This document shows positions 13,944 to 30,303 of a stretch of DNA of 30,303 bases, piece by piece. Origin of the DNA: Candidatus Cloacimonadota bacterium (GTDB lineage: Bacteria; Cloacimonadota; Cloacimonadia; Cloacimonadales; TCS61). A model generated the notes under the pieces. The model was not told the DNA's origin and made no database searches. It saw nothing but the letters and a program-made list of their open reading frames with translations. Each line of letters starts with the position of its first letter. Positions within the stretch are counted from its first letter, which is position 1. A program made the translations under genes and the position numbers. The stretch lies in the NCBI GenBank assembly GCA_023137125.1, contig JAGLPW010000012.1, positions 1 to 30,303 on the forward strand, read 5' to 3'.

Positions 13944-14660
13944 ATGAAGATCAAGATACCATCAATCATTAAAAAACAGATCATTGCCTTAACGGGATTT
14001 CTGTTAAGCGGGTTCGTTGCGGCACATTTGCTGGGAAATATAATGATATTTTTTGGACCTGACGCCTATAATAGTTATGCAAAAAAACTAATGAGCTTAG
14101 GCCCGATACTATATTTAATGGAAGCAGGGCTTATTATAATATTTTTGATCCACATGGGTTTTACAATAACCTTGGTTATAGAGAACAGAAAAGCCCGTCC
14201 AATAGCTTATAAGAAAACTCCCAGTACAAAAAAGCGATCAATTGCAACGCGAATAATGCCCTATACCGGCACTTTGATCTTTGCATTTGTGGTCTTGCAT
14301 CTTCTAGATTTCAAATACAATAATCACTATGGTATGGTGGCGGGAAAACTGCAAGAAGGTTTATACGCTCGTGTTTATGAATCATTTACAGATCCTCTGC
14401 ATTCCCTTTTATATATAATTGCAATTTGTGCAGTTTCGTTTCATCTTACTCATGCTATACAAAGTATGTTCCAAACGTTCGGTCTCAGCAGTGCAAAATC
14501 CCACCCGTATCTAGTGAAAATAAGTATTACAATTGGTGTTCTGATAGCTCTTATTTTTGGTTCACTTCCAATTTTTGTAATGGTGAAAGAGAAAGCTGCC
14601 CAGAAACCAAAAGTCAGTTTTTATGATACTTCAAAGGAGGTAATGCATAATGAAACTTAA
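13944..14660 (+). CDS. sdhC: Succinate dehydrogenase/fumarate reductase cytochrome b subunit (single-subunit, 5-TM b558 type)
   Basis: Five hydrophobic helices with conserved His in [22 protein letters not shown] and SFHLTHAIQ. Immediately precedes and overlaps the flavoprotein gene. Confidence 0.8.
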
Positions 14661-16563
14661 TTCCAATGTACCCAAAGGTAAATTGAAAGATAAATGGACG
14701 CAATATAAATTTGATATGAAACTTGTGAATCCGGCCAATAAAAGAAAATATAATATTATCGTTGTGGGAACGGGACTCGCCGGAGCTTCAGCTGCTGCAT
14801 CATATTCAGAACTTGGTTACAATGTAAAAGTATTTTGTATACAAGACAGCCCCAGACGAGCTCACAGTATTGCAGCTCAAGGCGGTATTAATGCTGCCAA
14901 AAATTATCCTAATGACGGCGATAGTATTTACAGATTATTTTATGATACAATAAAGGGGGGAGACTATCGTTCACGAGAAGCAAATGTATATAGATTAGCA
15001 GAAGTAAGCAATAATATTATCGACCAATGTGTGGCACAAGGAGTTCCTTTTGCTCGCGATTACGACGGCACACTTTCAAACCGATCTTTCGGTGGTGCAT
15101 TAGTTTCAAGAACATTTTATGCTCGTGGACAAACCGGCCAGCAACTTCATTTAGGAGCATGTGGAGCACTTATGAAAGAGGCTTCCAAACCGAATTTGGA
15201 AATATTCCCGCGACGTGAAATGATGGAATTGGTAATTCATGAAGGAAAAGCACGCGGGATCGTGGTTCGAAATTTGATAAACGGTGAATTGGAATCCTAT
15301 ACCGCAGACATGGTGGTTTTAGCATCGGGTGGATATGGAAATATTTATTTCCTTTCAACAAATGCAATGTCCACTAATTCTTCAGCAATATGGGCAGCAC
15401 ACAAAAAAGGTGCTTTCTTTGCTAATCCCTGTTTCGTTCAAATTCATCCCACATGTATGCCTGTGCATGGTGAGTATCAATCTAAACTTACTCTTATGAG
15501 CGAAAGTCTGCGAAATGACGGACGTGTTTGGGTTCCCCAAAAGAAAGGTGACAAACGTCATCCCAACGATATTCCTGAAAACGAACGAGATTATTATTTG
15601 GAAAATAAATATCCAACCTTTGGAAATCTTGTTCCCAGAGACGTAGCATCCAGAAATGCAAAAGAGCAATGCGATCTTGGTAAGGGAGTTGGCAATACAG
15701 GGCTTGCGGTTTATCTGGATTTCAAAGAAGCTACGAAGAGAATTGGTTTGGAAGCAATAAAAGCAAAATATGGAAATCTGTTTGATATGTATAAACAGAT
15801 CACCGGAAAAGATCCGTACTCCGAGCCGATGATGATCTTCCCGGCTATTCATTACACTATGGGCGGTTTGTGGGTAGATTATAATCTGATGAGTAATCTT
15901 CCCGGTCTTTTTGTGCTGGGAGAAGCTAATTTCTCTGATCATGGAGCAAATCGTTTGGGAGCCAGTGCGTTGATGCAGGGTCTTGCAGACGGCTATTTTG
16001 TGGCTCCTTATACTGCAGGAAACTACTTGGCTCAAGTAAATAACAACGAACTTACAACTGATCACGAAGTATTCCAAGAAGCAGAAAAAGCAGCAAAAGA
16101 TAAAATAGAAAAACTTTTAGCAATAAAAGGGAATCGAACTGTCGATGATTTCCATAAAGAATTGGGGAAACTACTTTGGGATAATTGCGGGATAGCTCGC
16201 AACGAAACCGACTTAAAAAAAGCACTAAAAGAAATTCCAAGGATACGCGAGGAATTCTGGAAAAATGTATTGATTCCGGGAACTACAGACAGTTTCAACC
16301 AAACTTTGGAGCGTGCAATGCGAGTTGCAGATTTTCTGGAAATGGCGGAGCTTATGATCCATGATGCCTCGGACAGAAAAGAATCTTGCGGATGCCATTT
16401 GAGAGAAGAAAGTCAAACTGAAGAAGGCGAAGCTCTTCGTAAGGATAATGAATACAGTTATGTCTCTGCCTGGGAATTCAAAGGTGTAGGAAAAGAACCG
16501 GAGCTTCATAAAGAGGAGCTTACTTTTGAAGAAGTAGAACTTACCCAAAGGAGCTATAAATAA
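14650..16563 (+). CDS. sdhA: Succinate dehydrogenase/fumarate reductase flavoprotein subunit
   Basis: FAD fold [13 protein letters not shown], covalent-FAD His context [17 protein letters not shown] and [18 protein letters not shown] motifs. 637 aa. Confidence 0.95.
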
Positions 16564-17324
16564 TGAAAACTATAAATATTACAGTAAAAGTATGGCGCCA
16601 GGAAAATGCCGTTGCTAAGGGTCATTTTGAAGATTATAAATTAACTGAAATTGATACCGATATGTCGTTTTTGGAAATGCTGGATGTACTGAATGAAGGG
16701 CTTACACTTTCCGGGGAGTTACCTTTGGCTTTTGATAGTGATTGCCGCGAAGGAATATGTGGGATGTGTGGAGCTGTGGTAAATGGGGAACCACACGGTC
16801 CAGTAAAAGCGGTAACAATTTGCCAGCTTCATATGAGAAGTTTTACAGATGGTCAGACCCTTGTAATTGAATCCTGGCGTTCAAAAGCATTTCCTGTTAT
16901 AAAAGATATTGTTGTAGATCGTTCTGCTTTTGATAGAATTATGATGGCTGGTGGTTATATTTCCGTGAAAACCGGTACTACCACAGATGCAAATGCAAAT
17001 CTAATAACCAGTGATATTGCTGAAGAAGCAATGGATGCAGCGCAATGTATTGGCTGCGGAGCCTGCGTGGCTGCTTGTCCAAATGCTTCGGCAATGCTGT
17101 TTGTAGGAGCAAAAGTAAGCCATTTGTCTTTGCTTCCTCAAGGGAAAATAGAATGTGTGGAACGTGTTAGAAAAATGGTAACACAAATGGATAAAGAAGG
17201 TTTTGGTTCCTGTTCAAATGAATATGAATGTTCTGTTTCCTGCCCGAAAGAGATAAATATTTCGCATATTGCCAGAATGAACAGGAAGATGATAAAGGCT
17301 ACTATAAAATCTGTGGTAGGATAA
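16563..17324 (+). CDS. sdhB: Succinate dehydrogenase/fumarate reductase iron-sulfur subunit
   Basis: 2Fe-2S motif [10 protein letters not shown] plus Cys clusters [12 protein letters not shown] and [14 protein letters not shown] stop/start overlap with sdhA. Confidence 0.9.
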
Positions 17325-20429: not shown

Positions 20430-21374
20430 TTATCTTTTCTTATTTTCTTTTTTCCTGTGTTTTAGCCAATACTTAATTGTAACTCGTCTCCATTTGCTTC
20501 TTATTTTATAAAAATCCTGCCAGTAAATTTCTTTAAATCCATTTGATGCTTTTTCAAATAGTTTATCTTTAACTTTGATCGTATATCTATTAGGACCTTC
20601 TGTAAGTTTACCAAATGATATTGCAAATTGAGGGCAATGATGCATACAACGTAAACAATGTAAACAAGCGAAATCATCGACTATTTTTATATTATCATTC
20701 ATCTTTATTAGATTACTTTCAGGACAATTTTTTGCACACAATCCACAAACATTACATTTTTCTCGGTCAATTTCCAATTTGGGATATTTTGTTCGCTCTA
20801 TATCTTTTACGATCTTCAATCTGAGAGAATCTAAGAAATTACCACGATGTTTTATTCTGAAATCTTTGTTTTGATATTTAAAAGAATTGTCTATGATTTC
20901 ATTGGTAAATTGATCAAGTTTATCAGTTATATTATCCTCGAAAAACATTACAGAACTATATTCATAACTATCAGAAGATTTCATCGAAGCAATTCCATTT
21001 GAAGGAGATTTAAAACTTTCTTTTGCAATTAATCGAAATGCCATTTTTTCTAATTTTTGTGCGAAATTATGTAAACTATCTGCTTCAAACCTTGTATATG
21101 AGCAGTATAAGAAAAATGGAGTAACTTCCTTTTTTCCTTTGAATATTGGAAATATATTTTCCATTATATGGGGATATGTAAATTTATAAACAGGAAAGCC
21201 AATTCCAACGATTTTGTTTTTAAGATCGAGCTTTTTTATTTTATCTAAAGATTCGATAGAAATGAGATCAACTTTGTGATGATCTTTCTCTAAACGCTTT
21301 TGTATCTCTTCGCTAATTAATTTTGTATTTCCGGTTCCGGAAAAATATAATAAAACAAATTCCATAAATTTCAA
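20430..21374 (-). CDS. Flavodoxin-like domain fused to 2x[4Fe-4S] ferredoxin domain (EFR1-like architecture)
   Basis: N-terminal LLYFSGTGNTKLISEEI (flavodoxin phosphate loop). C-terminal CNVCGLCAKNCP and CLHCLRCMHHCP. Same architecture as 27459..28274. Confidence 0.8.
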   Translation of the reverse strand: MKFMEFVLLYFSGTGNTKLISEEIQKRLEKDHHKVDLISIESLDKIKKLDLKNKIVGIGFPVYKFTYPHIMENIFPIFKGKKEVTPFFLYCSYTRFEADSLHNFAQKLEKMAFRLIAKESFKSPSNGIASMKSSDSYEYSSVMFFEDNITDKLDQFTNEIIDNSFKYQNKDFRIKHRGNFLDSLRLKIVKDIERTKYPKLEIDREKCNVCGLCAKNCPESNLIKMNDNIKIVDDFACLHCLRCMHHCPQFAISFGKLTEGPNRYTIKVKDKLFEKASNGFKEIYWQDFYKIRSKWRRVTIKYWLKHRKKENKKR

Positions 21375-21397: not shown

Positions 21398-21904
21398 TTA
21401 TTGGTTAATGTTATTGGAAGAACTCTCTACGATCTTACCTGTTGATTTATCGATGATCTCGTAGGAAATTGGAAAAGGATCGGATCTTCTTTTCATAAAC
21501 TTAATTGCATAAGATCTAGCATAATTCTTCGCCATTTCTACAGTTTCCCATTCATATTTACCAGAAAATGTTCTTTCTTCCTTATTAACCATAAACTGTT
21601 TTGTACAAAAACCAGGAAGACCAGAGAAGAATGGGATTGTTAATTTCGTTCGTTTAATAATAATTTCGGGGGAGATTTTAGGAGAATGAAATATTATCTT
21701 AAAAATTGCATTTCCAGATTTTGGTTCCCCGCTTTTTGATAAAATATCAATTTCAAGGAAAATTCTATTTTTATTCGAATCTTTTAATAGAATTTCCTTC
21801 CCAATATTTTTCCTTGGAAATTGAATTCTTCTCATTGTTTTTAAATGTGAATATCGCATAATAGAATATAATGGATTGTACTTTATCACATTCATTTTTT
21901 TCAC
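21398..21904 (-). CDS. Hypothetical protein; C-terminal half resembles a YdhR/ABM-type alpha+beta barrel
   Basis: The ORF sits between tetR (6-nt gap) and the flavodoxin-ferredoxin gene (23-nt gap). PGFCTKQFMVN....FSGKYEWETVEMAKNYARSY is reminiscent of the YdhR pattern (GL..K.W....G.Y.W.....A..Y). Weak assignment. Confidence 0.4.
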   Translation of the reverse strand: MKKMNVIKYNPLYSIMRYSHLKTMRRIQFPRKNIGKEILLKDSNKNRIFLEIDILSKSGEPKSGNAIFKIIFHSPKISPEIIIKRTKLTIPFFSGLPGFCTKQFMVNKEERTFSGKYEWETVEMAKNYARSYAIKFMKRRSDPFPISYEIIDKSTGKIVESSSNNINQ

Positions 21905-22979: not shown

Positions 22980-23683
22980 TTAGCACTCCCATACCAAAAG
23001 AGGTTAAAATGAAACGAAAATCTTACACATATCAAGTCCAATCTACCTTAGAAGCTTCCTGTGAAGAGGTATGGACACAGGTATTTCAAATGGAAGGGGT
23101 GAATGCTGAACTTTCACCGTGGATGAAAATGACTTATCCATTAGAGATGAATCGATTCGATCCTGAAATGACTCCTATTGGAAAGCTTGTTTTTCGTAGC
23201 ACCATATTAGTATTTGGGCTAATCCCAATAGATTACTATAATTTGTCTTTTGTCAAAATTGATTCTCCCACTCAATTTCATGAGCAATCAAGCTCAATAG
23301 GATTCAAAAAATGGACGCATATCCGTACACTGGAAACCGTAGAGAGAGGTTGCAGATTGACTGACAAGGTGGAATATGAACCCCGTATCCCCATATTAGG
23401 AGGTGCGTTACATCCTGTTTTTTTGGGATTATTTAAACATCGTCAAAAATACTTGAGAAAAAAGTTTGGTTATTTGAACGAACCAGGCGATACTGAAATT
23501 TGAATGTTCTATCGTAAAAAATGTTAAACAATATATTCTCTTCCGAACTTATAGGTGCTAACAAAAGGATGAACGCGGACCCAAAAAGGCTTGGCTTCGA
23601 GTAAATCTGTCATAAGGGTCAAGCATTCGCTATTTTAAAGGGTACCACAACCTATCGGCGTTTTTGGGCCGGTTATCCATACG
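22980..23683 (+). mobile_element. Candidate integron-type gene cassette (SRPBCC ORF + attC-like site)
   Basis: The heptamer GTTAGCA at 22979-22985 is the exact reverse complement of TGCTAAC (23556-23562) at the left end of the downstream folded repeat. That repeat ends in GTTATCC (23683-23689). One compact ORF starts 29 nt after the putative G|TT boundary. It is the only plus-strand gene in 17.3-30.3 kb and is visibly GC-richer. Confidence 0.35.
23009..23503 (+). CDS. SRPBCC (START/Bet v 1-like) ligand-binding superfamily protein
   Basis: 164 aa. The N-terminal pattern V.STLEAS.EEVW..V....GVN.EL.PWMKM, the central W.H.R.LE....GC.L.D.V.Y.P segment and the C-terminal F.HRQKYLRKKFG resemble SRPBCC/cyclase-dehydrase-like proteins. 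AAGAGG RBS. Confidence 0.6.
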   Translation: MKRKSYTYQVQSTLEASCEEVWTQVFQMEGVNAELSPWMKMTYPLEMNRFDPEMTPIGKLVFRSTILVFGLIPIDYYNLSFVKIDSPTQFHEQSSSIGFKKWTHIRTLETVERGCRLTDKVEYEPRIPILGGALHPVFLGLFKHRQKYLRKKFGYLNEPGDTEI

Positions 23684-23722: not shown

Positions 23723-25105
23723 TTAAATCTTCTCCAACAACTTCTTCAGCGGTTTCACCATCTGCGAACTCATCTGATTATTGTAAATCTCCTTTCGTAT
23801 CTTTGGGATTTTGATGAGTTGATATAAAATAAAATTCACCATTTTTATTTTAAATTTTGTATTGTAAGATTTAAAAATCCCCAGCTTCTTAAAAGCTTTA
23901 TAATCAGCAACAAAAGGAAAGCGAAGCGGTCCGTATATATCATCGCGGAAAACTTTCATTCCACCCACACCGAGGAAATTATCTTCTTTCTTCAGTTTTT
24001 GATCTGCATAGCGGATTGTCTTTTGGGCAGTTGCGGAAATGATATTATCCAATTCTGCTGAATCTTTGTATTCATCAGTAACAAAATCAACCAGGTTTCC
24101 TCTTTGAATTTGCGCCCACGCCTCGAATATCTGCCTGATATTCGGAATTTGTTTCAGTGGTCCAGAAACAAGATAGACAAGTTGTTTACCGGTAAATACG
24201 GGAACATGATTGTTATAAAAGCTGCGATCTATGAACATCTTCCAACGAGCAGAAAAAAACCTGTCTTTGATCTTAGCAGCATAAACAATAATATCTGCTG
24301 TTTTAAGTTTGGAATCAAAGAATTTATTGTACTCATCTTTCCCTTCGTAAATGCAGGTATTGTCGTATCCGCAATGAATACAACCCAGGCATCCACCTTT
24401 AATATCTAGATCATGAATATTATATTCTTCGATTTCCTCACTGAAATTTGCTTTGAATTGTGCTGTCATTTTTGCAAGATTCCCTTCTGGATCAGTGCTG
24501 TCTGTTAGAAGTAATATCTTTTTTCCTCTTGTGGAAATCTTGTTTATAATTTCTTCTGGTTTGTATTGGAAATTAGAATATTTAAGAGGAGAATAATAAC
24601 GAATAACGGGCAGATCATTCTCGATTGCATTGAAGAAATTTTCTGCAAACAATAGAAGCTCATTCTGTCCTTCTTGGTTGGAAAGACTGCTCATACCGGC
24701 AGAGATAAATTCAGCATATTTCATGTTCAGATCTTCGCAGATCGCTCTCATATAATTGTGGGCAGTATGATCGTAAAAGTGAATGGATGTAGAAAGAACT
24801 GCTGTATATTTATTTTGGAATACACTTTGAACATTTCTTTCAGAAATCAGTTCGATAAATCGTTTGTATTGAGCCGCAACGAGAAACACATAAAGCGGAA
24901 ACGCCCAGATCACGGCATCTGCCGACTTAACTTTCTCTATAATGCCATTAAAAACTTTTTCATCTTTTTCTATTCGCTTGATTTGCTGCGAGATATTTTC
25001 AAATTCATATTCGTGATCTGGAAAGTTCTTTTGAATAAATTTTACGTAATGTAAAGTTACGCTTTCTTTACCTTTCGGGCTACCGTTTAAAACTATTATT
25101 TTCAT
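23723..25105 (-). CDS. Tandem FMN-reductase/flavodoxin-fold protein; second domain carries an iron-sulfur-flavoprotein (Isf)-type Cys motif
   Basis: Domain 1 is MKIIVLNGSPKGKESVT...AVIWAFPLYVF. Domain 2 is KKILLLTDS...GGCLGCIHCGYDNTCIY (CX2CX2CX5C)...ADIIVYAAKI. I place the start at 25105 (AGGAGA RBS 8 nt upstream, 11 nt after the upstream stop) rather than at the track's 25171, which would overlap the upstream gene. Confidence 0.8.
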   Translation of the reverse strand: MKIIVLNGSPKGKESVTLHYVKFIQKNFPDHEYEFENISQQIKRIEKDEKVFNGIIEKVKSADAVIWAFPLYVFLVAAQYKRFIELISERNVQSVFQNKYTAVLSTSIHFYDHTAHNYMRAICEDLNMKYAEFISAGMSSLSNQEGQNELLLFAENFFNAIENDLPVIRYYSPLKYSNFQYKPEEIINKISTRGKKILLLTDSTDPEGNLAKMTAQFKANFSEEIEEYNIHDLDIKGGCLGCIHCGYDNTCIYEGKDEYNKFFDSKLKTADIIVYAAKIKDRFFSARWKMFIDRSFYNNHVPVFTGKQLVYLVSGPLKQIPNIRQIFEAWAQIQRGNLVDFVTDEYKDSAELDNIISATAQKTIRYADQKLKKEDNFLGVGGMKVFRDDIYGPLRFPFVADYKAFKKLGIFKSYNTKFKIKMVNFILYQLIKIPKIRKEIYNNQMSSQMVKPLKKLLEKI

Positions 25106-25116
25106 TTTGTCTTCTC

Positions 25117-26862
25117 CTAAAATTTCGGTGCTTCCTTCAAATAAGATTTCTTTCCATCCAGAGTCTTCCAAAAATTATCTGCCTGACTTTGGAAAGTCTC
25201 TTTAGAAAAACCTATGTTAGTGATAGCCATCATCAGATCGACGTCAATCTTTCCTTCATTAACAATTTGTTTTCCAGCTGTTTCACAAATCTCAGCAATT
25301 TTATCTCTTCTCTTCTTATAAACCGGATATACAATAGATTCAGCGGCGGGAAGAAAAAATTCTCCCATCAACGAAGTTTTTTCCATATGACTACTGAAAC
25401 AGCGGAAAGAGTATTTCAAACCATCAAAATTATGTTCCACTTCCGGAAATCCTGATGCGCTGAAAACTACAAAACCTTGTCCTTTATCTTCTTCGTAGCG
25501 GTGCGGATGCTGGGTTTGACCATTTTTTATAAGCATATAGGGTTTCATATTCGGTAAAAGTCTGTCTAAGAAATTCTTCATAATTCCCGTTACATTGAAT
25601 ATGTATAATGGAGAAGAATAAATTACCAGATCTGCTTCCCGAAGTTTGATTCTTAATTCAGTCATATCATCTTTATAAATGCATTCTCCTGGAGTTTGCG
25701 TCCAACATTGATAACAACCGGAACAGGGATTTATCTTTTTGTTCTTTAGTTTAATGAATTCAATTTCTGCTCCAGCTTCCTGCAAACCTTTGCAAAAGTT
25801 ATTAACCATAAAAGTGGTTTTACTCAATTTTTCGCTTCGTGGTCCACCATCTAAAACAATCACTTTTTTTATTCTTTTAGGTTCAAATGTTTTATACTCG
25901 AGAGTTGTATTTACAGGTTGTTTTATTTCCGGTGCAGGTTGATCATTTTCAGGTGAAAAGAGAGAACCGAGATTCAGCAAAATGGAAGCATCACCTTCCA
26001 CAGAATATTCTTTATTCATAAAAGCAGCATCACCGGAAACTTCATTATTAGAAATTTTCAACCATAATTCCGAATTTGAAATAATTGTTGTTTTAGGATT
26101 TTCAGCAATTCCTTCCGTGTAAGTGCACTCTTTATTTTTTATTTGAAGATAACCGTTTGTCGGCTCTTTTCCCGAAAGTTTAAATTGAATCAATTCATCT
26201 AAACCTTCTGCTTTTTTGGCATTCAAACCATACGGCATTGCCTGAAAAAGTTTCTTGATTGAAGTGAAGTGTAATTGCTCTCCTTTCACTTTTTGCATCA
26301 AGATTTTCGGAAGTTTCAATGTTAACGGAATTCCGATAATTACCTGCAATAAAATCGGAACAACAGTTGAAGCAATCATTTGAATTCCGCTATCGCTTGA
26401 ATATTGTACTTTGGTCAAAACAATTGCAACAGCAAAAAGAAATACCCAAATATAATTGATAATTAGATTTATCTTTAAGAATTGCTGACCTTCTGTAATT
26501 GCTTTCGGGTAATCTTTTACTGAAAACTCAAAAGTAAAAGGTTTCATCTTGAAGAGTGGTGGGAAAGCAGCGACAATGAACAATCCGAGATACAATCCCA
26601 CGATGATATTATGGAGATAAATTTCTCCCAAAAGTGGGAATACTAAAACCGAAATTCCACCGAGAACTGCAACTCCGGTGAGTCCAAACATAAAGTAAGT
26701 TGAGATCTTCATTTTCATTGCCAACAGCAAATTCAATATCAAAATAATATTGATTATCAGCACAAACGGTTTCATCGCTTCCAAGCTGTGCATACTTGCT
26801 TCCGATAAAACATTTAAAGCAATTACACCGGCGAACGGTAAGTTTTTGATTATAGCTTTCAC
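25117..26862 (-). CDS. Fusion protein: about 6-TM membrane domain + SCP2 lipid-binding domain + Isf-like FMN-reductase-fold domain
   Basis: About six hydrophobic helices in residues 1-190. SCP2 pattern ELIQFKLSG....GYLQIKN.ECTYTEG......TIISNSELWLKI.....SGDAAFMNKEYSVEGDASILLNLGSLF. Then KKVIVLDGGPRSEKLSKT...INPCSGCYQCWTQTPGECIY (CX2CX2CX7C)...ADLVIYSSPLY. GTG start overlaps the upstream stop (GTGA). Confidence 0.75.
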   Translation of the reverse strand: MKAIIKNLPFAGVIALNVLSEASMHSLEAMKPFVLIINIILILNLLLAMKMKISTYFMFGLTGVAVLGGISVLVFPLLGEIYLHNIIVGLYLGLFIVAAFPPLFKMKPFTFEFSVKDYPKAITEGQQFLKINLIINYIWVFLFAVAIVLTKVQYSSDSGIQMIASTVVPILLQVIIGIPLTLKLPKILMQKVKGEQLHFTSIKKLFQAMPYGLNAKKAEGLDELIQFKLSGKEPTNGYLQIKNKECTYTEGIAENPKTTIISNSELWLKISNNEVSGDAAFMNKEYSVEGDASILLNLGSLFSPENDQPAPEIKQPVNTTLEYKTFEPKRIKKVIVLDGGPRSEKLSKTTFMVNNFCKGLQEAGAEIEFIKLKNKKINPCSGCYQCWTQTPGECIYKDDMTELRIKLREADLVIYSSPLYIFNVTGIMKNFLDRLLPNMKPYMLIKNGQTQHPHRYEEDKGQGFVVFSASGFPEVEHNFDGLKYSFRCFSSHMEKTSLMGEFFLPAAESIVYPVYKKRRDKIAEICETAGKQIVNEGKIDVDLMMAITNIGFSKETFQSQADNFWKTLDGKKSYLKEAPKF

Positions 26863-27443
26863 TCTTTAGTTCCAACCTTGTAAGCTTTTTCTAACCATTG
26901 CTTTCTCTGTTTCTTGGAAGACGTTCTAACAGAACCGAAATAATGTTTCCCTACAAATTTCATTCCAGTAAAAGTGATAATATCTTTCATCATTTTTCCA
27001 CCCGGATCACCGACAATTAAATTCATATAAAATGGCGGGGAATCCATTGTAGAAAGAACCCTTGTCGTTCTGCCGGTTAGTAGTTTATCCCATTTGGGGA
27101 TTGATCCTTTTGATTCAAGATACTTAAATGCAAATCCGGGTTCCCAGATTCTTTCAATAAATAGTTTTAAAATTGCCGGTGGAGTTGCCCACCATGTAGG
27201 ATATGTAAAAGTTAGATGATCTGCCCAAGAAATAAGTTCTTGAGCATTTTGCAGATCTGAGGTTAATTCAGGGCTTGGATTGTGTCCATTTTTTAGAAAT
27301 CCCTCTAAATCCAATTTTCTTAAATCTATAGCTTTAATTTCATTTCCCGATCTCTTTGCTCCTGTAATATACTTGTATGTTAGTGCATTACAAAAACTAT
27401 CTTCTCTGGGATGAGCTTTGATTACTAATATTTTCTTCATCAA
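26859..27443 (-). CDS. NAD(P)H dehydrogenase (quinone)-type flavoprotein (Flavodoxin_2 / NQO-MdaB-KefF-like)
   Basis: MMKKILVIKAHPREDSFCNAL at the N-terminus and ADHLTFTYPTWWATPPAILKLFIERIW. Both are hallmark segments of the Flavodoxin_2 family. AGGAGA RBS. Confidence 0.85.
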   Translation of the reverse strand: MMKKILVIKAHPREDSFCNALTYKYITGAKRSGNEIKAIDLRKLDLEGFLKNGHNPSPELTSDLQNAQELISWADHLTFTYPTWWATPPAILKLFIERIWEPGFAFKYLESKGSIPKWDKLLTGRTTRVLSTMDSPPFYMNLIVGDPGGKMMKDIITFTGMKFVGKHYFGSVRTSSKKQRKQWLEKAYKVGTKE

Positions 27444-27458
27444 ATTCTCCTGATATTT

Positions 27459-28274
27459 TTAGTTTAAAATATTTCTTTTTAATTCATTATAGAAGGAAAT
27501 GTTCAATCTTCTGTTATCTTTCATTTTATCGGAAAAAATTATGGCGTTCTGTGGACAGTTATGAATACATTTAAGACAGAACTCACAATTATGCGGATCG
27601 AAAGCAGGAATTATTTCTCTACTTTCCCAACAATTTCTAGGACAGTTATTTACGCAAATATTGCAATTAATACATCTCTCTTTGATAATATGCATCCTGC
27701 TTTTGTATTTCTTATAAGATAACTCTCCAAAATACAAAAGGATATTATTAAGCGGAACATACCATTTATAAGCTGGAATTCTCAATTTAGCTTTAGAAGA
27801 ATTTAAGGTTTTGGATATTACATTAACTGCTTTCAGGATCTTTGCATTGATCTTTTTCTCATATTGGAAAATTCTTGAGCTTAATTTTGGAAACAGTAAT
27901 GCTCCATCGCTTGCCGGTCCGATGAACTGAAAATAATTAATAGTTACTACGTTTTTTTTATCTAGTTTTTTAATAAGAATACGCAGAGTATTTCCAGAGT
28001 ATAAAGCACAAGTTGTGAACACAAGCGCTTTTACTTGTTTTTGGAAAAACGGCATTCTATCCACAAATTCTTTCATTGATAGTGAAGGTTGGCAACTATA
28101 AGTAGGGAAGCCAAAGATCAGAAGATCATAATTCTCTATTTGTTGATAATCGAAAGAGCTGCTGATCTGAGAGATGTCAATTTCACAAGTTTCAGATAAT
28201 CTCTCAGATAAAACTTCTGAGATCAGTTTTGTGCTTCCAGAACCTGAATGATACAGAACAAGGACTTTTTTCAT
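27459..28274 (-). CDS. Flavodoxin-like domain fused to 2x[4Fe-4S] ferredoxin domain (EFR1-like architecture)
   Basis: KKVLVLYHSGSGSTKLISEVL at the N-terminus. CINCNICVNNCP and CEFCLKCIHNCP at the C-terminus. Paralogous in architecture to 20430..21374. Confidence 0.8.
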   Translation of the reverse strand: MKKVLVLYHSGSGSTKLISEVLSERLSETCEIDISQISSSFDYQQIENYDLLIFGFPTYSCQPSLSMKEFVDRMPFFQKQVKALVFTTCALYSGNTLRILIKKLDKKNVVTINYFQFIGPASDGALLFPKLSSRIFQYEKKINAKILKAVNVISKTLNSSKAKLRIPAYKWYVPLNNILLYFGELSYKKYKSRMHIIKERCINCNICVNNCPRNCWESREIIPAFDPHNCEFCLKCIHNCPQNAIIFSDKMKDNRRLNISFYNELKRNILN

Positions 28275-28297: not shown

Positions 28298-28723
28298 CTA
28301 ATACTTTAGTTTAATTTCAAGTATCATATCTTCTTTCACTTCAAATTTCGCTTTATCAAATTTCGGCGGACCGAATGTTCCAAAAACATTATTAGAAAAT
28401 GCATAACCTTCTTTTGGAATACCTAGGAAATTTCTATCCATTTTTACATTGGAGTTTTCATCATGATAAATTGCGATTGCATATACACCCTCCGGGATAT
28501 TTTCAAAAGTGTGTGTAATTGACTCTTGGTCTGCCTGAATAAATGCTCCAGCAATAACATCACCTTTTGGATAGCTTTCTTCACCCTGGAATAACCCGAT
28601 AGAAATTTCACCTTCCAAATTTGTAATATCTGTTATGGTAACCTTTATCAAATATCCTGCTTCCTGTGCAAAGCATAAACTTGCTAATACAATTAAAATG
28701 ATCATTAAGAATAACTTTTTCAT
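28298..28723 (-). CDS. Secreted DUF2141 family protein
   Basis: Signal peptide. GEISIGLF......YPKGD, YAIAIYHDENSNVKMDRNFLGIPKEGYAFSNN and GPPKFDKAKFEV fit the DUF2141 pattern. Confidence 0.7.
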   Translation of the reverse strand: MKKLFLMIILIVLASLCFAQEAGYLIKVTITDITNLEGEISIGLFQGEESYPKGDVIAGAFIQADQESITHTFENIPEGVYAIAIYHDENSNVKMDRNFLGIPKEGYAFSNNVFGTFGPPKFDKAKFEVKEDMILEIKLKY

Positions 28724-28724
28724 T

Positions 28725-29243
28725 TTAAATTTCTCCTTTTATTTGCTTTAAATAATTAGTGTACCAACCCAAAATAAATGAATAATAACCAATTCCAAAT
28801 TCTAAAGTGGCCATTTCATATTTATTACAATTTTCTCTCACTTGAGGCACATCCCCTAAGTTATGCATCGTCTCAATATGCATTTTTAATTCTGATAAGT
28901 AGTTTTCCAATATCTGAATTTTTTCATCTTTAGAAACATATGGAAAGAAAAACAATCGCAATAACATATCGTTTTTTACTTTAGAAACTCCAACTTTGCT
29001 GTTCAACCATTCTTTAAAGGCAGATCTACCAGATTCTGTAATTGTATAGATTTTGTGCAATCGTCCATTTGATACTTCTTCTTCAGTTGTCACAAGTCCA
29101 TTTCTCTCCAACTTTTTAAATGCTGGATTTATGCTGCCCTGGCTTGTACTGAAGAAGAACTTTGTACTAAGTTCCATTTTTTTTCTGATATCATATCCAG
29201 TATATGGTTTTTGCATTAACATTCCGAGTAGAATTTTTTCCAT
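28725..29243 (-). CDS. PadR family transcriptional regulator
   Basis: LLGMLMQKPYTGYDIRKKME....SQGSINPAFKKLERNGLVTTEEEVSNGRLHKIYTITESGRSAFKEWL is a classic PadR winged helix. AAGGAGA RBS. Confidence 0.9.
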   Translation of the reverse strand: MEKILLGMLMQKPYTGYDIRKKMELSTKFFFSTSQGSINPAFKKLERNGLVTTEEEVSNGRLHKIYTITESGRSAFKEWLNSKVGVSKVKNDMLLRLFFFPYVSKDEKIQILENYLSELKMHIETMHNLGDVPQVRENCNKYEMATLEFGIGYYSFILGWYTNYLKQIKGEI

Positions 29244-29253
29244 ATTATCTCCT

Positions 29254-30303
29254 TTAAAATTTTATTCCGAAACCAACACTTAGTGAATTTATTATTTCAA
29301 ATTCTTTAGCAAATATCATGTCGCTGCGATAGGTTACAAATGGGAGGAATCCAATACTGTTATCCGGTTCCCAGCCAAGGTTGGTAGAATATCCAATTAC
29401 ATTTTCTTCATCTTCTCCATAGCCAAAATACCCGATAGTTCCCATACTTGCGTTAAACCAGTTAAATGGTTTGGCTTCTAAAATTACTCCGATAGATGTA
29501 TATGGATTTTCAGTGTTGAAATATGTTACATCAAGACCCCATTTTTTATCTCCGGCGTTAAGTAAAAACCTGCCGCCAATATGTGCAACAGTTTCTCCAT
29601 TTGTTGTTAGAATTCCATAACCGAAATGCGGACGGAACATATAATTACTCTTTTTAGCAGAGTATTCTATTTCCTCTCTACCTTGAATTTCTTCAAGTTT
29701 ATAACCGTGTTTCCCTTTGCCGATCTCCTCTAAAATATTTATCTCTACTATTGGAGTTTGTTTGTTATCAATTGAAAGAGTCATATTGCTCAAGTCATAC
29801 ACATTTGACCAAACTGTGGATTTCTGCGATACTTTATTTAAGATATTATGAATATCTGCGATGGAATAATTTTCACTTTTTTGTAATTCCTCGCTGGCAA
29901 TATCAAACCTTGTAAATGAGGTTTTGCTATCTTGCTCCAACGAAGGATCGGTGAGAAAATGATTTGTGATTATTTGATTCTTTTTCTCATCACGAATGAC
30001 GATAATTTCCTTATTAAAATATTCGACAACTGCCGATTCACCAGATATATCCACGATTTTGTAATGAACAACCGGATTTCCCAGGAACATTCCGAACAGA
30101 TTGGAGTATTTGGAGAATATCTTAATTGCTTCATCCACAGTAGAAGCATTCTGCAAAATCACTTCTACCATTTCAAGACTTTTTCTCATCGGTTTGAAAA
30201 GTGAAAGTGGTGTTTTGGTGTTTGGAACAGCAGCAATGCCGATGAACAGGCCTTTGTTATTAACTCCTTCGTAGGGCATTGTTTCACTAATTATTTCCAC
30301 AAT
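29254..30303 (-). CDS. Ntn-hydrolase (choloylglycine hydrolase/linear amide C-N hydrolase-like) domain fused to a C-terminal 8-strand beta-barrel; N-terminus outside window
   Basis: The ORF is open to the window edge. YEGVNNKGLFIGIAAVP, QIITNHF and STVWSNVYDLSNMTLSI resemble CBAH/Ntn-hydrolase segments. The last about 130 aa show eight amphipathic beta-strand-like segments rich in G/Y/F, ending in SVGFGIKF (terminal Phe, outer-membrane barrel signature). Confidence 0.6.
   Translation of the reverse strand: MVEIISETMPYEGVNNKGLFIGIAAVPNTKTPLSLFKPMRKSLEMVEVILQNASTVDEAIKIFSKYSNLFGMFLGNPVVHYKIVDISGESAVVEYFNKEIIVIRDEKKNQIITNHFLTDPSLEQDSKTSFTRFDIASEELQKSENYSIADIHNILNKVSQKSTVWSNVYDLSNMTLSIDNKQTPIVEINILEEIGKGKHGYKLEEIQGREEIEYSAKKSNYMFRPHFGYGILTTNGETVAHIGGRFLLNAGDKKWGLDVTYFNTENPYTSIGVILEAKPFNWFNASMGTIGYFGYGEDEENVIGYSTNLGWEPDNSIGFLPFVTYRSDMIFAKEFEIINSLSVGFGIKF

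Follow-up and report, generated by a model that had tools for sequence, protein, structure and literature searches.

What does a protein do that joins six membrane helices, an SCP2 lipid-carrier domain and a flavin mononucleotide (FMN) reductase domain in a single chain? Such a protein, 581 aa in length, is encoded on the minus strand in a 30,303-nucleotide stretch (positions 1 to 30,303 of contig JAGLPW010000012.1, hereafter the window) of a metagenome-assembled genome (MAG) of a Candidatus Cloacimonadota bacterium. The original prediction, made from the letters of the sequence, had described this three-part fusion, and suggested that its parts work jointly on a membrane lipid or quinone. Here, we found that the fusion is a real, widespread and previously undescribed family. 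The SCP2 and FMN reductase domain classes are already known individually, and the architecture and the transmembrane (TM) domain family are new. Thus, the observation was confirmed throughout, and its interpretation was partly supported, as described below. The gene and the parts of its product are as follows.

25117..26862, minus strand: fusion gene, 581 aa (= MCK5050265.1), GTG start and TAG stop.
26290..26862, minus strand: N-terminal membrane domain, residues 1-191, six helices, predicted N-in/C-in (hydropathy, AlphaFold2 and searches).
25954..26271, minus strand: SCP2 domain, residues 198-303, immediately following TM6 at the predicted cytoplasmic side, with C246 invariant (Pfam SCP2 and Foldseek).
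25870..25953, minus strand: linker, residues 304-331, low-confidence and flexible, with a conserved EYKTFEP just before the flavodoxin fold.
25120..25869, minus strand: flavodoxin-fold FMN reductase domain, residues 332-581 (Pfam FMN_red and Flavodoxin_2; FLR 7d38; azoreductase and NQO folds; WP_058372092.1).
25681..25725, minus strand: compact Cys motif CSGCYQCWTQTPGEC, C380-x2-C383-x2-C386-x7-C394, putative [4Fe-4S] site, invariant in 69 sequences.

The three parts were recovered by hydropathy, structure prediction and hidden Markov model scans. Six hydrophobic helices lie within residues 4-182, on which the Kyte-Doolittle profile and the secondary structure of the AlphaFold2 model agreed. 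In the model, TM6 runs on as a long helix to residue 191 and SCP2 begins about 10 residues later. The Pfam SCP2 model (PF02036) matched residues 213-302 with an E value of 3.9e-10 and 40.4 bits against a gathering cut-off of 21.3, covering model positions 11-100 of 101; the string first quoted as the SCP2 signature corresponds to residues 277-302. FMN_red matched residues 333-436 (E 8.5e-18) and Flavodoxin_2 residues 332-474 (E 1.4e-11), both above the gathering score. The linker of about 28 residues between SCP2 and the flavodoxin fold has a predicted local distance difference test score (pLDDT) below 50 at residues 311-316, in a model with mean pLDDT of 80.8 and a predicted template-modelling score (pTM) of 0.69. 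The product is identical to MCK5050265.1 of a Candidatus Cloacimonadota MAG, whose name “NAD(P)H-dependent oxidoreductase” is an automatic annotation, and the JGI label of its relatives reads [quoted passage not shown]. The literature search returned no paper pairing an SCP2 domain with an FMN reductase and the databases carry automatic names only, which agrees with the original prediction, whose author was not aware of a described protein of this architecture. The GTG start at 26862 shares 4 nt (GTGA) with the TGA stop of the upstream Flavodoxin_2 gene. In an alignment of 69 homologues, the N-terminus is kept from residue 1 on with P9 and F10 invariant, and the GTG start is therefore supported.

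The conservation and distribution of the fusion were investigated by searching 5.8 billion proteins, which gave 261 matches. When lengths and domains were judged on the best 120 of the 261, 114 were 570-605 aa long and 55-89% identical to the query, nearly all with the same Pfam set, and the TM, SCP2 and flavoprotein regions were equally conserved (mean column identity 0.72-0.80). Such a recurrence exceeds chance by far. Scanning one genome per GTDB species yielded 63 loci, nearly all in MAGs. Going by the depositors' MAG labels, the bacterial hosts belong to Cloacimonadota, Desulfobacterales, Bacteroidales, Flavobacteriaceae, Campylobacterota, Fermentibacterota, Krumholzibacteriia and Spirochaetes, together with a Vallitaleaceae firmicute and Izemoplasma, and the archaeal hosts to Thermoplasmatales and to Heimdall-, Loki- (Promethearchaeota), Odin- and Hermodarchaeota. 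The archaeal-labelled loci come from seven independent MAGs, two of them on contigs of ~180-190 kb, and the genes flanking them were not diagnostic of archaeal origin. The hosts of the family are overwhelmingly anaerobes from sediments. A full-length copy was not found among the plasmids of PLSDB, and promoter and terminator scans were uninformative, with promoter-like sites fewer than in shuffled sequences.

The strongest evidence that the TM domain, SCP2 and reductase act together came from the other arrangements in which they are encoded. The TM domain occurs as TM+SCP2, TM+FMN_red, TM+SCP2+FMN_red and TM+SCP2+FMN_red+SCP2, and each TM-domain variant examined carries SCP2 and/or FMN_red. 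In a divergent split-gene branch (loci L070 and L071), a MerR gene is followed by TM+SCP2 (319 aa) and FMN_red+SCP2 (356 aa) genes that overlap by 4 nt, and at L072 a MerR gene is followed by TM+FMN_red (494 aa) and a separate SCP2 (97 aa). The split forms retain the compact Cys motif, as CQGCFTCWTKTPGQC from residue 50 and as CTGCAVCLEKGSC. Complete TM+SCP2 proteins stand alone at L067 and L069, and TM-less SCP2+FMN_red proteins of ~400 aa also occur. A standalone TM form is not established, the one “TM only” match checked being a contig-end fragment. Repeated fusion and fission of co-encoded parts strongly supports the view that the three form one functional unit, as the idea of a membrane anchor, carrier and reductase working jointly had supposed. 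Separately, B12-binding radical SAM genes were noted near two of the TM+SCP2 split-type loci, one adjacent and convergent at L067 (1320-2714) and another ~3 kb from the locus with three genes between at L070 (10142-11680); this could be coincidence or a lipid-modification link.

The membrane domain is a new family without a Pfam or PDB relative. Residues 1-195 matched no Pfam family, the domain stayed without a Pfam match when 17 diverse members were scanned at E<=5, a PDB profile search returned no relative, and the TM part was unmatched among the best 50 whole-model Foldseek matches. One marginal PDB match of a single helix to BK channel beta subunits (E 0.006) was judged to be chance. An exhaustive search of 1.84 billion cluster representatives with the TM domain alone found only 85 proteins. 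The conserved core of the domain is formed by TM4, the cytoplasmic loop and TM5, with the pattern LY..LFL.AALPPLFG..PFT..F....YP...W....F..INLI.T..WA.LF, and a short 3-helix form in Campylobacterota corresponds exactly to this TM4-loop-TM5 half. Invariant residues of the domain are Y91, L94, P101, F109, P119, W139, P169 and G177. The aligned members have no conserved His and no conserved charge within the membrane, which makes a heme-binding or ion-translocating domain unlikely and would favour a structural or ligand-portal role. Across the 69 sequences, the number of lysines plus arginines was high in loops 2-3 (1.9) and 4-5 (3.7) and after helix 6 (2.5), and low in loops 3-4 and 5-6. By the positive-inside rule, this distribution places both termini inside and assigns SCP2 and the flavoprotein to the cytoplasm, a location that would fit the insertion of their cofactors without an export signal.

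The catalytic domain carries the compact CX2CX2CX7C motif about 47 residues in, as had been predicted, with C380 lying 47 residues past the start of the FMN_red match at residue 333. All four cysteines (C380, C383, C386 and C394) are invariant in the 69 sequences. The loop at 387-393 is of low confidence in the AlphaFold2 model, as would be expected if the protein had a cluster that the model lacks. Iron-sulfur flavoproteins (Isf) use a CX2CX2CX5-7C motif to ligate [4Fe-4S] (PMC3164229), and Isf of Methanosarcina, Archaeoglobus and Entamoeba resembles the domain in its flavodoxin-like fold, in the position of the compact motif (~47-50 residues in) and in occurring in anaerobes. Isf is, however, a small soluble protein of ~190 aa that has neither SCP2 nor membrane domains. 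No solved Isf was named among the PDB sequence matches even at E<=10, and no Isf-specific NCBIfam model matched. Thus, of the proposed link to Isf, the motif is present and invariant, whereas membership by homology was not established. The flavin-binding segments are also conserved: G339, G340, R342, S347 and T349 of a G-x-x-R...S-x-T loop, and P418, L419, G426, K429, D433 and R434 of a second segment (SPxY...G..K..D) that aligns with NQO2, are invariant in the 69 sequences.

The closest solved sequence relative of the catalytic domain was the flavone reductase FLR of Flavonifractor plautii (7d38, “Cd1”), with E values of 4.7e-12 for the single sequence and 1.2e-17 for the profile, followed by NQO2 at 1e-7. 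FLR is a dimeric FMN ene-reductase that was assayed with FMNH2 supplied by Fre and described as not NAD(P)H-dependent (PMC7862272). It has the flavodoxin fold in common with the domain, together with an aligned Cys cluster, CTGCTACx11C, and its own substrate is planar and hydrophobic, but it is soluble, 310 aa long and without TM or SCP2 domains, the spacing to its last cysteine is 11 instead of 7, and no Fe-S cluster was reported in it (PMC7862272). The alignment spans residues 2-109 of FLR, about 110 residues, and passes through the related Cys cluster. The FLR tail that lines the flavone pocket (His271, Ile275, Thr279 and Lys282; PMC7862272) lies beyond its end at about residue 110 of FLR, and the C-terminal 140 residues of the fusion are unmatched. 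The nearest folds by Foldseek were azoreductases including paAzoR1 with ubiquinone-1, NQO1/2 and an archaeal NQO. The NQO1/NQO2, AzoR, MdaB and WrbA group gave E values of ~1e-6 and target-normalised template-modelling scores (TMt) of 0.57-0.65, and hydrophobic quinones are typical substrates of these enzymes; the flavin-site segment SPLY..V.G..K.F.DR of the fusion aligns with NQO2. These enzymes differ in being soluble and NAD(P)H- or dihydronicotinamide riboside (NRH)-dependent, and in lacking the Fe-S motif and any fused SCP2 or polytopic membrane domain. A further lead, 5mji (“BRAMP domain protein”), gave no usable literature. Among cultured organisms, Clostridium butyricum has a “flavodoxin family protein”, WP_058372092.1, with 36% identity over residues 333-565 and the same CSGCFTCWTKTPGSC signature. 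This protein is 235 aa, soluble, without TM, SCP2 or a DUF2141 neighbour, and is itself uncharacterised. Standalone catalytic domains are common in Clostridia, and the homology indicates that the catalytic module derives from a wider uncharacterised family; the family of WP_058372092.1 is probably the parent of the module.

The SCP2 fold was modelled with pLDDT of ~85-96 at residues 200-300. Its Foldseek matches were AF_1534 (3bn8 and 3cnu; TMt 0.62-0.64) and, from the alkylsulfatases SdsA1 and YjcS, the C-terminal domain; the latter, which with AF_1534 is the closest in fold, binds alkyl chains. In SdsA1/YjcS, UbiJ/UbiT and SCPx/MFE-2, an SCP2 domain holds a hydrophobic chain or isoprenoid for a catalytic unit to which it is joined or which it serves, and the fusion would follow the same principle. 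The partners in those systems are, however, a metallo-beta-lactamase, Ubi hydroxylases, and a thiolase or dehydrogenase, none of them integral to the membrane. The ubi context of UbiJ/UbiT was not found here, as no ubi gene occurs in the 64 neighbourhoods considered below.

In the window, six closely spaced genes on the minus strand run in the order PadR, DUF2141, EFR1, NQO-type Flavodoxin_2, fusion (in fifth place) and tandem FMN_red, and the successive intergenic gaps are 1, 23, 15, -4 and 11 nt. The genes around it are as follows.

29254..30303, minus strand: N-terminal nucleophile (Ntn) amidohydrolase, CBAH/AAT-like, with a ~135-aa putative outer-membrane barrel module; ends at the window edge.
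28725..29243, minus strand: PadR-family regulator that opens the operon, separated from DUF2141 by 1 nt (Pfam).
28298..28723, minus strand: DUF2141, secreted beta-sandwich, conserved partner gene (Pfam E 1.4e-33).
27459..28274, minus strand: EFR1-family flavodoxin + 2x[4Fe-4S] ferredoxin, accessory, candidate donor (NCBIfam NF038196, E 3.2e-33).
26859..27443, minus strand: NQO/MdaB-type Flavodoxin_2, accessory, with its stop overlapping the fusion start (Pfam; this genome only).
23723..25105, minus strand: tandem FMN_red protein, 460 aa, accessory, 11 nt downstream of the fusion (Pfam).

When all open reading frames (ORFs) within 5 kb were clustered without bias at 64 loci, the only recurring neighbours were DUF2141 (38 loci; 40 by tblastn) and regulators. 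The conserved cassette is regulator-DUF2141-fusion. The original account did not contain these conserved partners. The regulator is PadR in Cloacimonadota and Desulfobacterota, where the order PadR-DUF2141-fusion recurs, a membrane-anchored LytTR protein in Bacteroidota, a cyclic nucleotide (cNMP)-binding Crp/Fnr-like protein in Campylobacterota, and MerR in the split-gene branch. A close Cloacimonadota relative (the contig carrying P0004) has the order CBAH-PadR-DUF2141-fusion-transglutaminase-...-DNA_alkylation. Because it lacks EFR1, NQO and tandem FMN_red, these genes are lineage-specific insertions, and EFR1 was found beside the fusion only in the close relatives L005 and L006. A conserved coupling with any of the three was rejected, all being restricted to this genome or its closest relatives. 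Hence, the overlap with the NQO-type gene from which translational coupling had been proposed is present in this genome but is not a feature of the family, whose close relatives carry DUF2141 directly upstream.

Compared with the P0004 contig, the window gains EFR1, NQO, tandem FMN_red, a 164-aa ORF (orf164), TetR, a 168-aa ORF (orf168) and a second EFR1-like gene between 20430 and 29243, a local accumulation of flavoproteins. The second half of the tandem FMN_red protein (23723-25105, minus strand) carries CLGCIHCGYDNTC (CX2CX2CX5C), which aligns with the motif of the fusion, and the true start of the protein is probably ATG 25105, with AGGAG upstream, rather than TTG 25171. The second flavodoxin + 2x[4Fe-4S] gene (20430-21374, minus strand), a paralogue of EFR1 that is typed by Pfam only, lies in a neighbouring TetR-led operon, and both paralogues are possible dedicated electron donors for the local flavoproteins. 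The 164-aa (23009-23503, plus strand) and 168-aa (21398-21904, minus strand) ORFs of this redox gene island had no significant Pfam match, the latter being weakly ydhR-like (E 0.009). Anti-phage defence was considered and dropped, as PADLOC gave no matches.

The conserved partner DUF2141 has a signal peptide and was modelled as a beta-sandwich with pLDDT of 89.8. Of the 56 diderm loci, 40 carry it, against none of the 10 loci that are archaeal, Gram-positive or wall-less (Fisher p 2.5e-5), a distribution consistent with a periplasmic function that only cells with two membranes require. The protein had no sequence relative in the PDB and no structural match there at E<=1e-3 (best E 0.014), and DUF2141 as a recognisable lipid-binding fold was thus unsupported. 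The only published context found for it was in Sphingomonadales, where it neighbours crtG, a carotenoid hydroxylase gene (PMC5989583). An invariant cluster of polar residues between positions 87 and 111 (H87, D88, N90, D96, E105, S110 and N111) suggests a metal- or ligand-binding site. In addition, the fusion gene has in other phyla a recurrent neighbour, a ~135-aa module that has a signal peptide and whose C-terminal residue is aromatic. It belongs to no Pfam family, and by these sequence features it is a putative small outer-membrane beta-barrel. Its occurrences are as follows.

L020:4098-4571, L043:7502-8011, L049:7469-7978 and L061:9739-10269: standalone ~135-aa module, four loci.
Window 29254-30303, minus strand, and L046:2803-4017: module fused to a CBAH/AAT-type Ntn amidohydrolase.

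Considering these results together, the reading we prefer, at roughly an even chance, is that the fusion is an inducible reductase at the cytoplasmic face of the inner membrane, acting on a membrane-partitioned quinone-like or enone compound. The six-helix domain would hold SCP2 at the cytoplasmic surface of the membrane, and the flexible linker of ~28 residues would tether the FMN reductase with its Isf-type four-Cys motif, which presumably binds [4Fe-4S]. The TM/SCP2 pair may extract a hydrophobic acceptor from the bilayer and present it to the flavin. Most probably, this acceptor is a quinone, or resembles one, or else is a lipophilic enone (alpha,beta-unsaturated) compound, a class ranked likeliest because of the NQO/AzoR fold, the kinship to FLR, the ligand-responsive regulators, the envelope partners and the quinone-less hosts. 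Electrons would pass from a low-potential donor to the Fe-S cluster, then to FMN and to the substrate. Here, EFR1, the ferredoxin/flavodoxin of the same operon, could plausibly supply these electrons, and NAD(P)H is also possible. The fusion would be the inner-membrane part of an inducible cassette with a one-component regulator and a secreted DUF2141, to which some diderms add the putative small outer-membrane barrel, at times fused to the Ntn amidohydrolase. The cassette points to the handling of an exogenous or envelope-derived hydrophobic compound, for detoxification or as an electron sink, and not to core respiration. An Sdh/Frd operon in the window (13944-17324, plus strand) encodes an SdhC-like membrane anchor, a flavoprotein and an Fe-S subunit, from which this organism probably has a membrane quinone pool, and a link of the fusion to respiration in this genome is still conceivable.

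Several observations weigh against the reading of an inducible quinone or enone reductase. The full-length members found are all from uncultured organisms, and in one genome (P0112) the gene sits alone among housekeeping genes. DUF2141 is a generic beta-sandwich, a fold that lends no support to a periplasmic ligand handler, and it is kept beside TM-less SCP2-flavoprotein variants (L040, L057 and L058), so that any coupling to DUF2141 would not run via the TM domain. SCP2 could serve membrane association or oligomerisation and not ligand transfer. As the FLR tail does not align, ene-reductase chemistry is not transferable to the fusion. Izemoplasma and part of the Asgard archaea live by fermentation and have no respiratory quinones, which speaks against a native quinone pool as the substrate throughout the family.

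Among the alternatives, the one that survives best, although we consider it rather unlikely, is a lipid ene-reductase or biohydrogenase that reduces C=C bonds in the manner of FLR, with an exogenous sterol, carotenoid or polyene, unsaturated fatty acid or enone that enters via the envelope as the substrate and detoxification or an electron sink as the purpose. Here the best characterised relative is a flavone ene-reductase, SCP2 is named as a sterol carrier, and some loci combine an Ntn hydrolase of lipid-amide type, fused to a putative outer-membrane barrel, with secreted DUF2141, whose family also neighbours crtG in Sphingomonadales (PMC5989583). The spread over co-habiting sediment lineages in both domains of life is also what an environment-specific trait would show. 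However, the FLR homology stops after the first ~110 residues of the flavodoxin fold, short of the substrate tail, the putative barrel and amidase are present in only ~8 loci, and the fold of DUF2141 is uninformative.

Somewhat less probable is an Isf-like oxidative-stress enzyme of the membrane, in which ferredoxin electrons would reduce O2, H2O2 or, via SCP2, lipid hydroperoxides and so protect the membranes of strict anaerobes. The lack of any detectable sequence relationship to solved Isf and the nearest relatives, FLR and quinone/azo reductases, speak against this possibility despite the invariant compact CX2CX2CX7C at the Isf position, and the secreted DUF2141 partner would be left unexplained. 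The sediment anaerobes that overwhelmingly host the gene, the stress-type regulators (PadR, MerR and Crp/Fnr-like) that flank it and the ferredoxin-type genes in the same operon here agree with such a role. So does a KatG-type catalase-peroxidase of 731 aa (L063:2379-4574), 3.4 kb upstream of a TM-less Promethearchaeota copy, but this neighbour was seen once only.

We regard as a shade more doubtful still the view that TM and SCP2 serve only to hold at the membrane, or to oligomerise, an NAD(P)H quinone/azo reductase of a generic soluble type, with SCP2 carrying no substrate. Such a role would accommodate the promiscuity and dimeric state of flavodoxin-fold quinone reductases, the variants that lack TM or SCP2, and the frequent occurrence of the catalytic domain on its own in Clostridia. 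It would accommodate less readily an SCP2 that is conserved as strongly as the catalytic domain, is doubled in some members (TM+SCP2+FMN_red+SCP2) and kept as a separate gene when split off, or the occurrence of TM+SCP2 as a complete protein by itself.

A more ambitious extension, which we consider the least probable of the functional readings, is an envelope-spanning pathway that would capture an environmental lipid through the putative outer-membrane barrel, at times fused to a lipid-amide hydrolase, and DUF2141 and reduce it at the cytoplasmic face, the TM domain serving as a lipid portal that hands over to SCP2. This would make it a dedicated lipid hydrogenation or electron-sink system of anoxic sediments, its core enzyme having been exchanged horizontally between Bacteria and Asgard/Thermoplasmatales archaea, with reduction of sterol to stanol, or of polyenes, enones or quinones as candidate reactions. 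Finally, the possibility that the fusion is an assembly or frameshift artefact, which the original prediction had named as a way to undo it, or a lineage-specific accident joining unrelated genes without joint function, was negligible and the artefact is ruled out, as the MAG source and the unannotated TM domain that would allow it stand against 114 full-length homologues from independent assemblies with the same three equally conserved parts, 63 genomic loci across many phyla, and the other fused and split arrangements of the same modules.

Both SCP2 carriers and the quinone, azo and ene reductases of the flavodoxin fold are familiar, in every case in soluble form, and the fusion gives such a reductase a carrier and a membrane domain of its own. 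The standalone homologue of C. butyricum gives a direct route to the Fe-S and FMN question. If the preferred reading of a membrane-surface reductase is true, the family would be a compact answer to how a cytoplasmic redox cofactor meets a substrate buried in the bilayer, and the TM domain and DUF2141, both orphan families, would gain defined functions. The presence of the gene, going by the MAG labels, in many uncultured sediment lineages, Asgard archaea among them, together with dedicated regulators, suggests that it probably responds to a common and so far unrecognised chemical challenge or resource in anoxic sediments.

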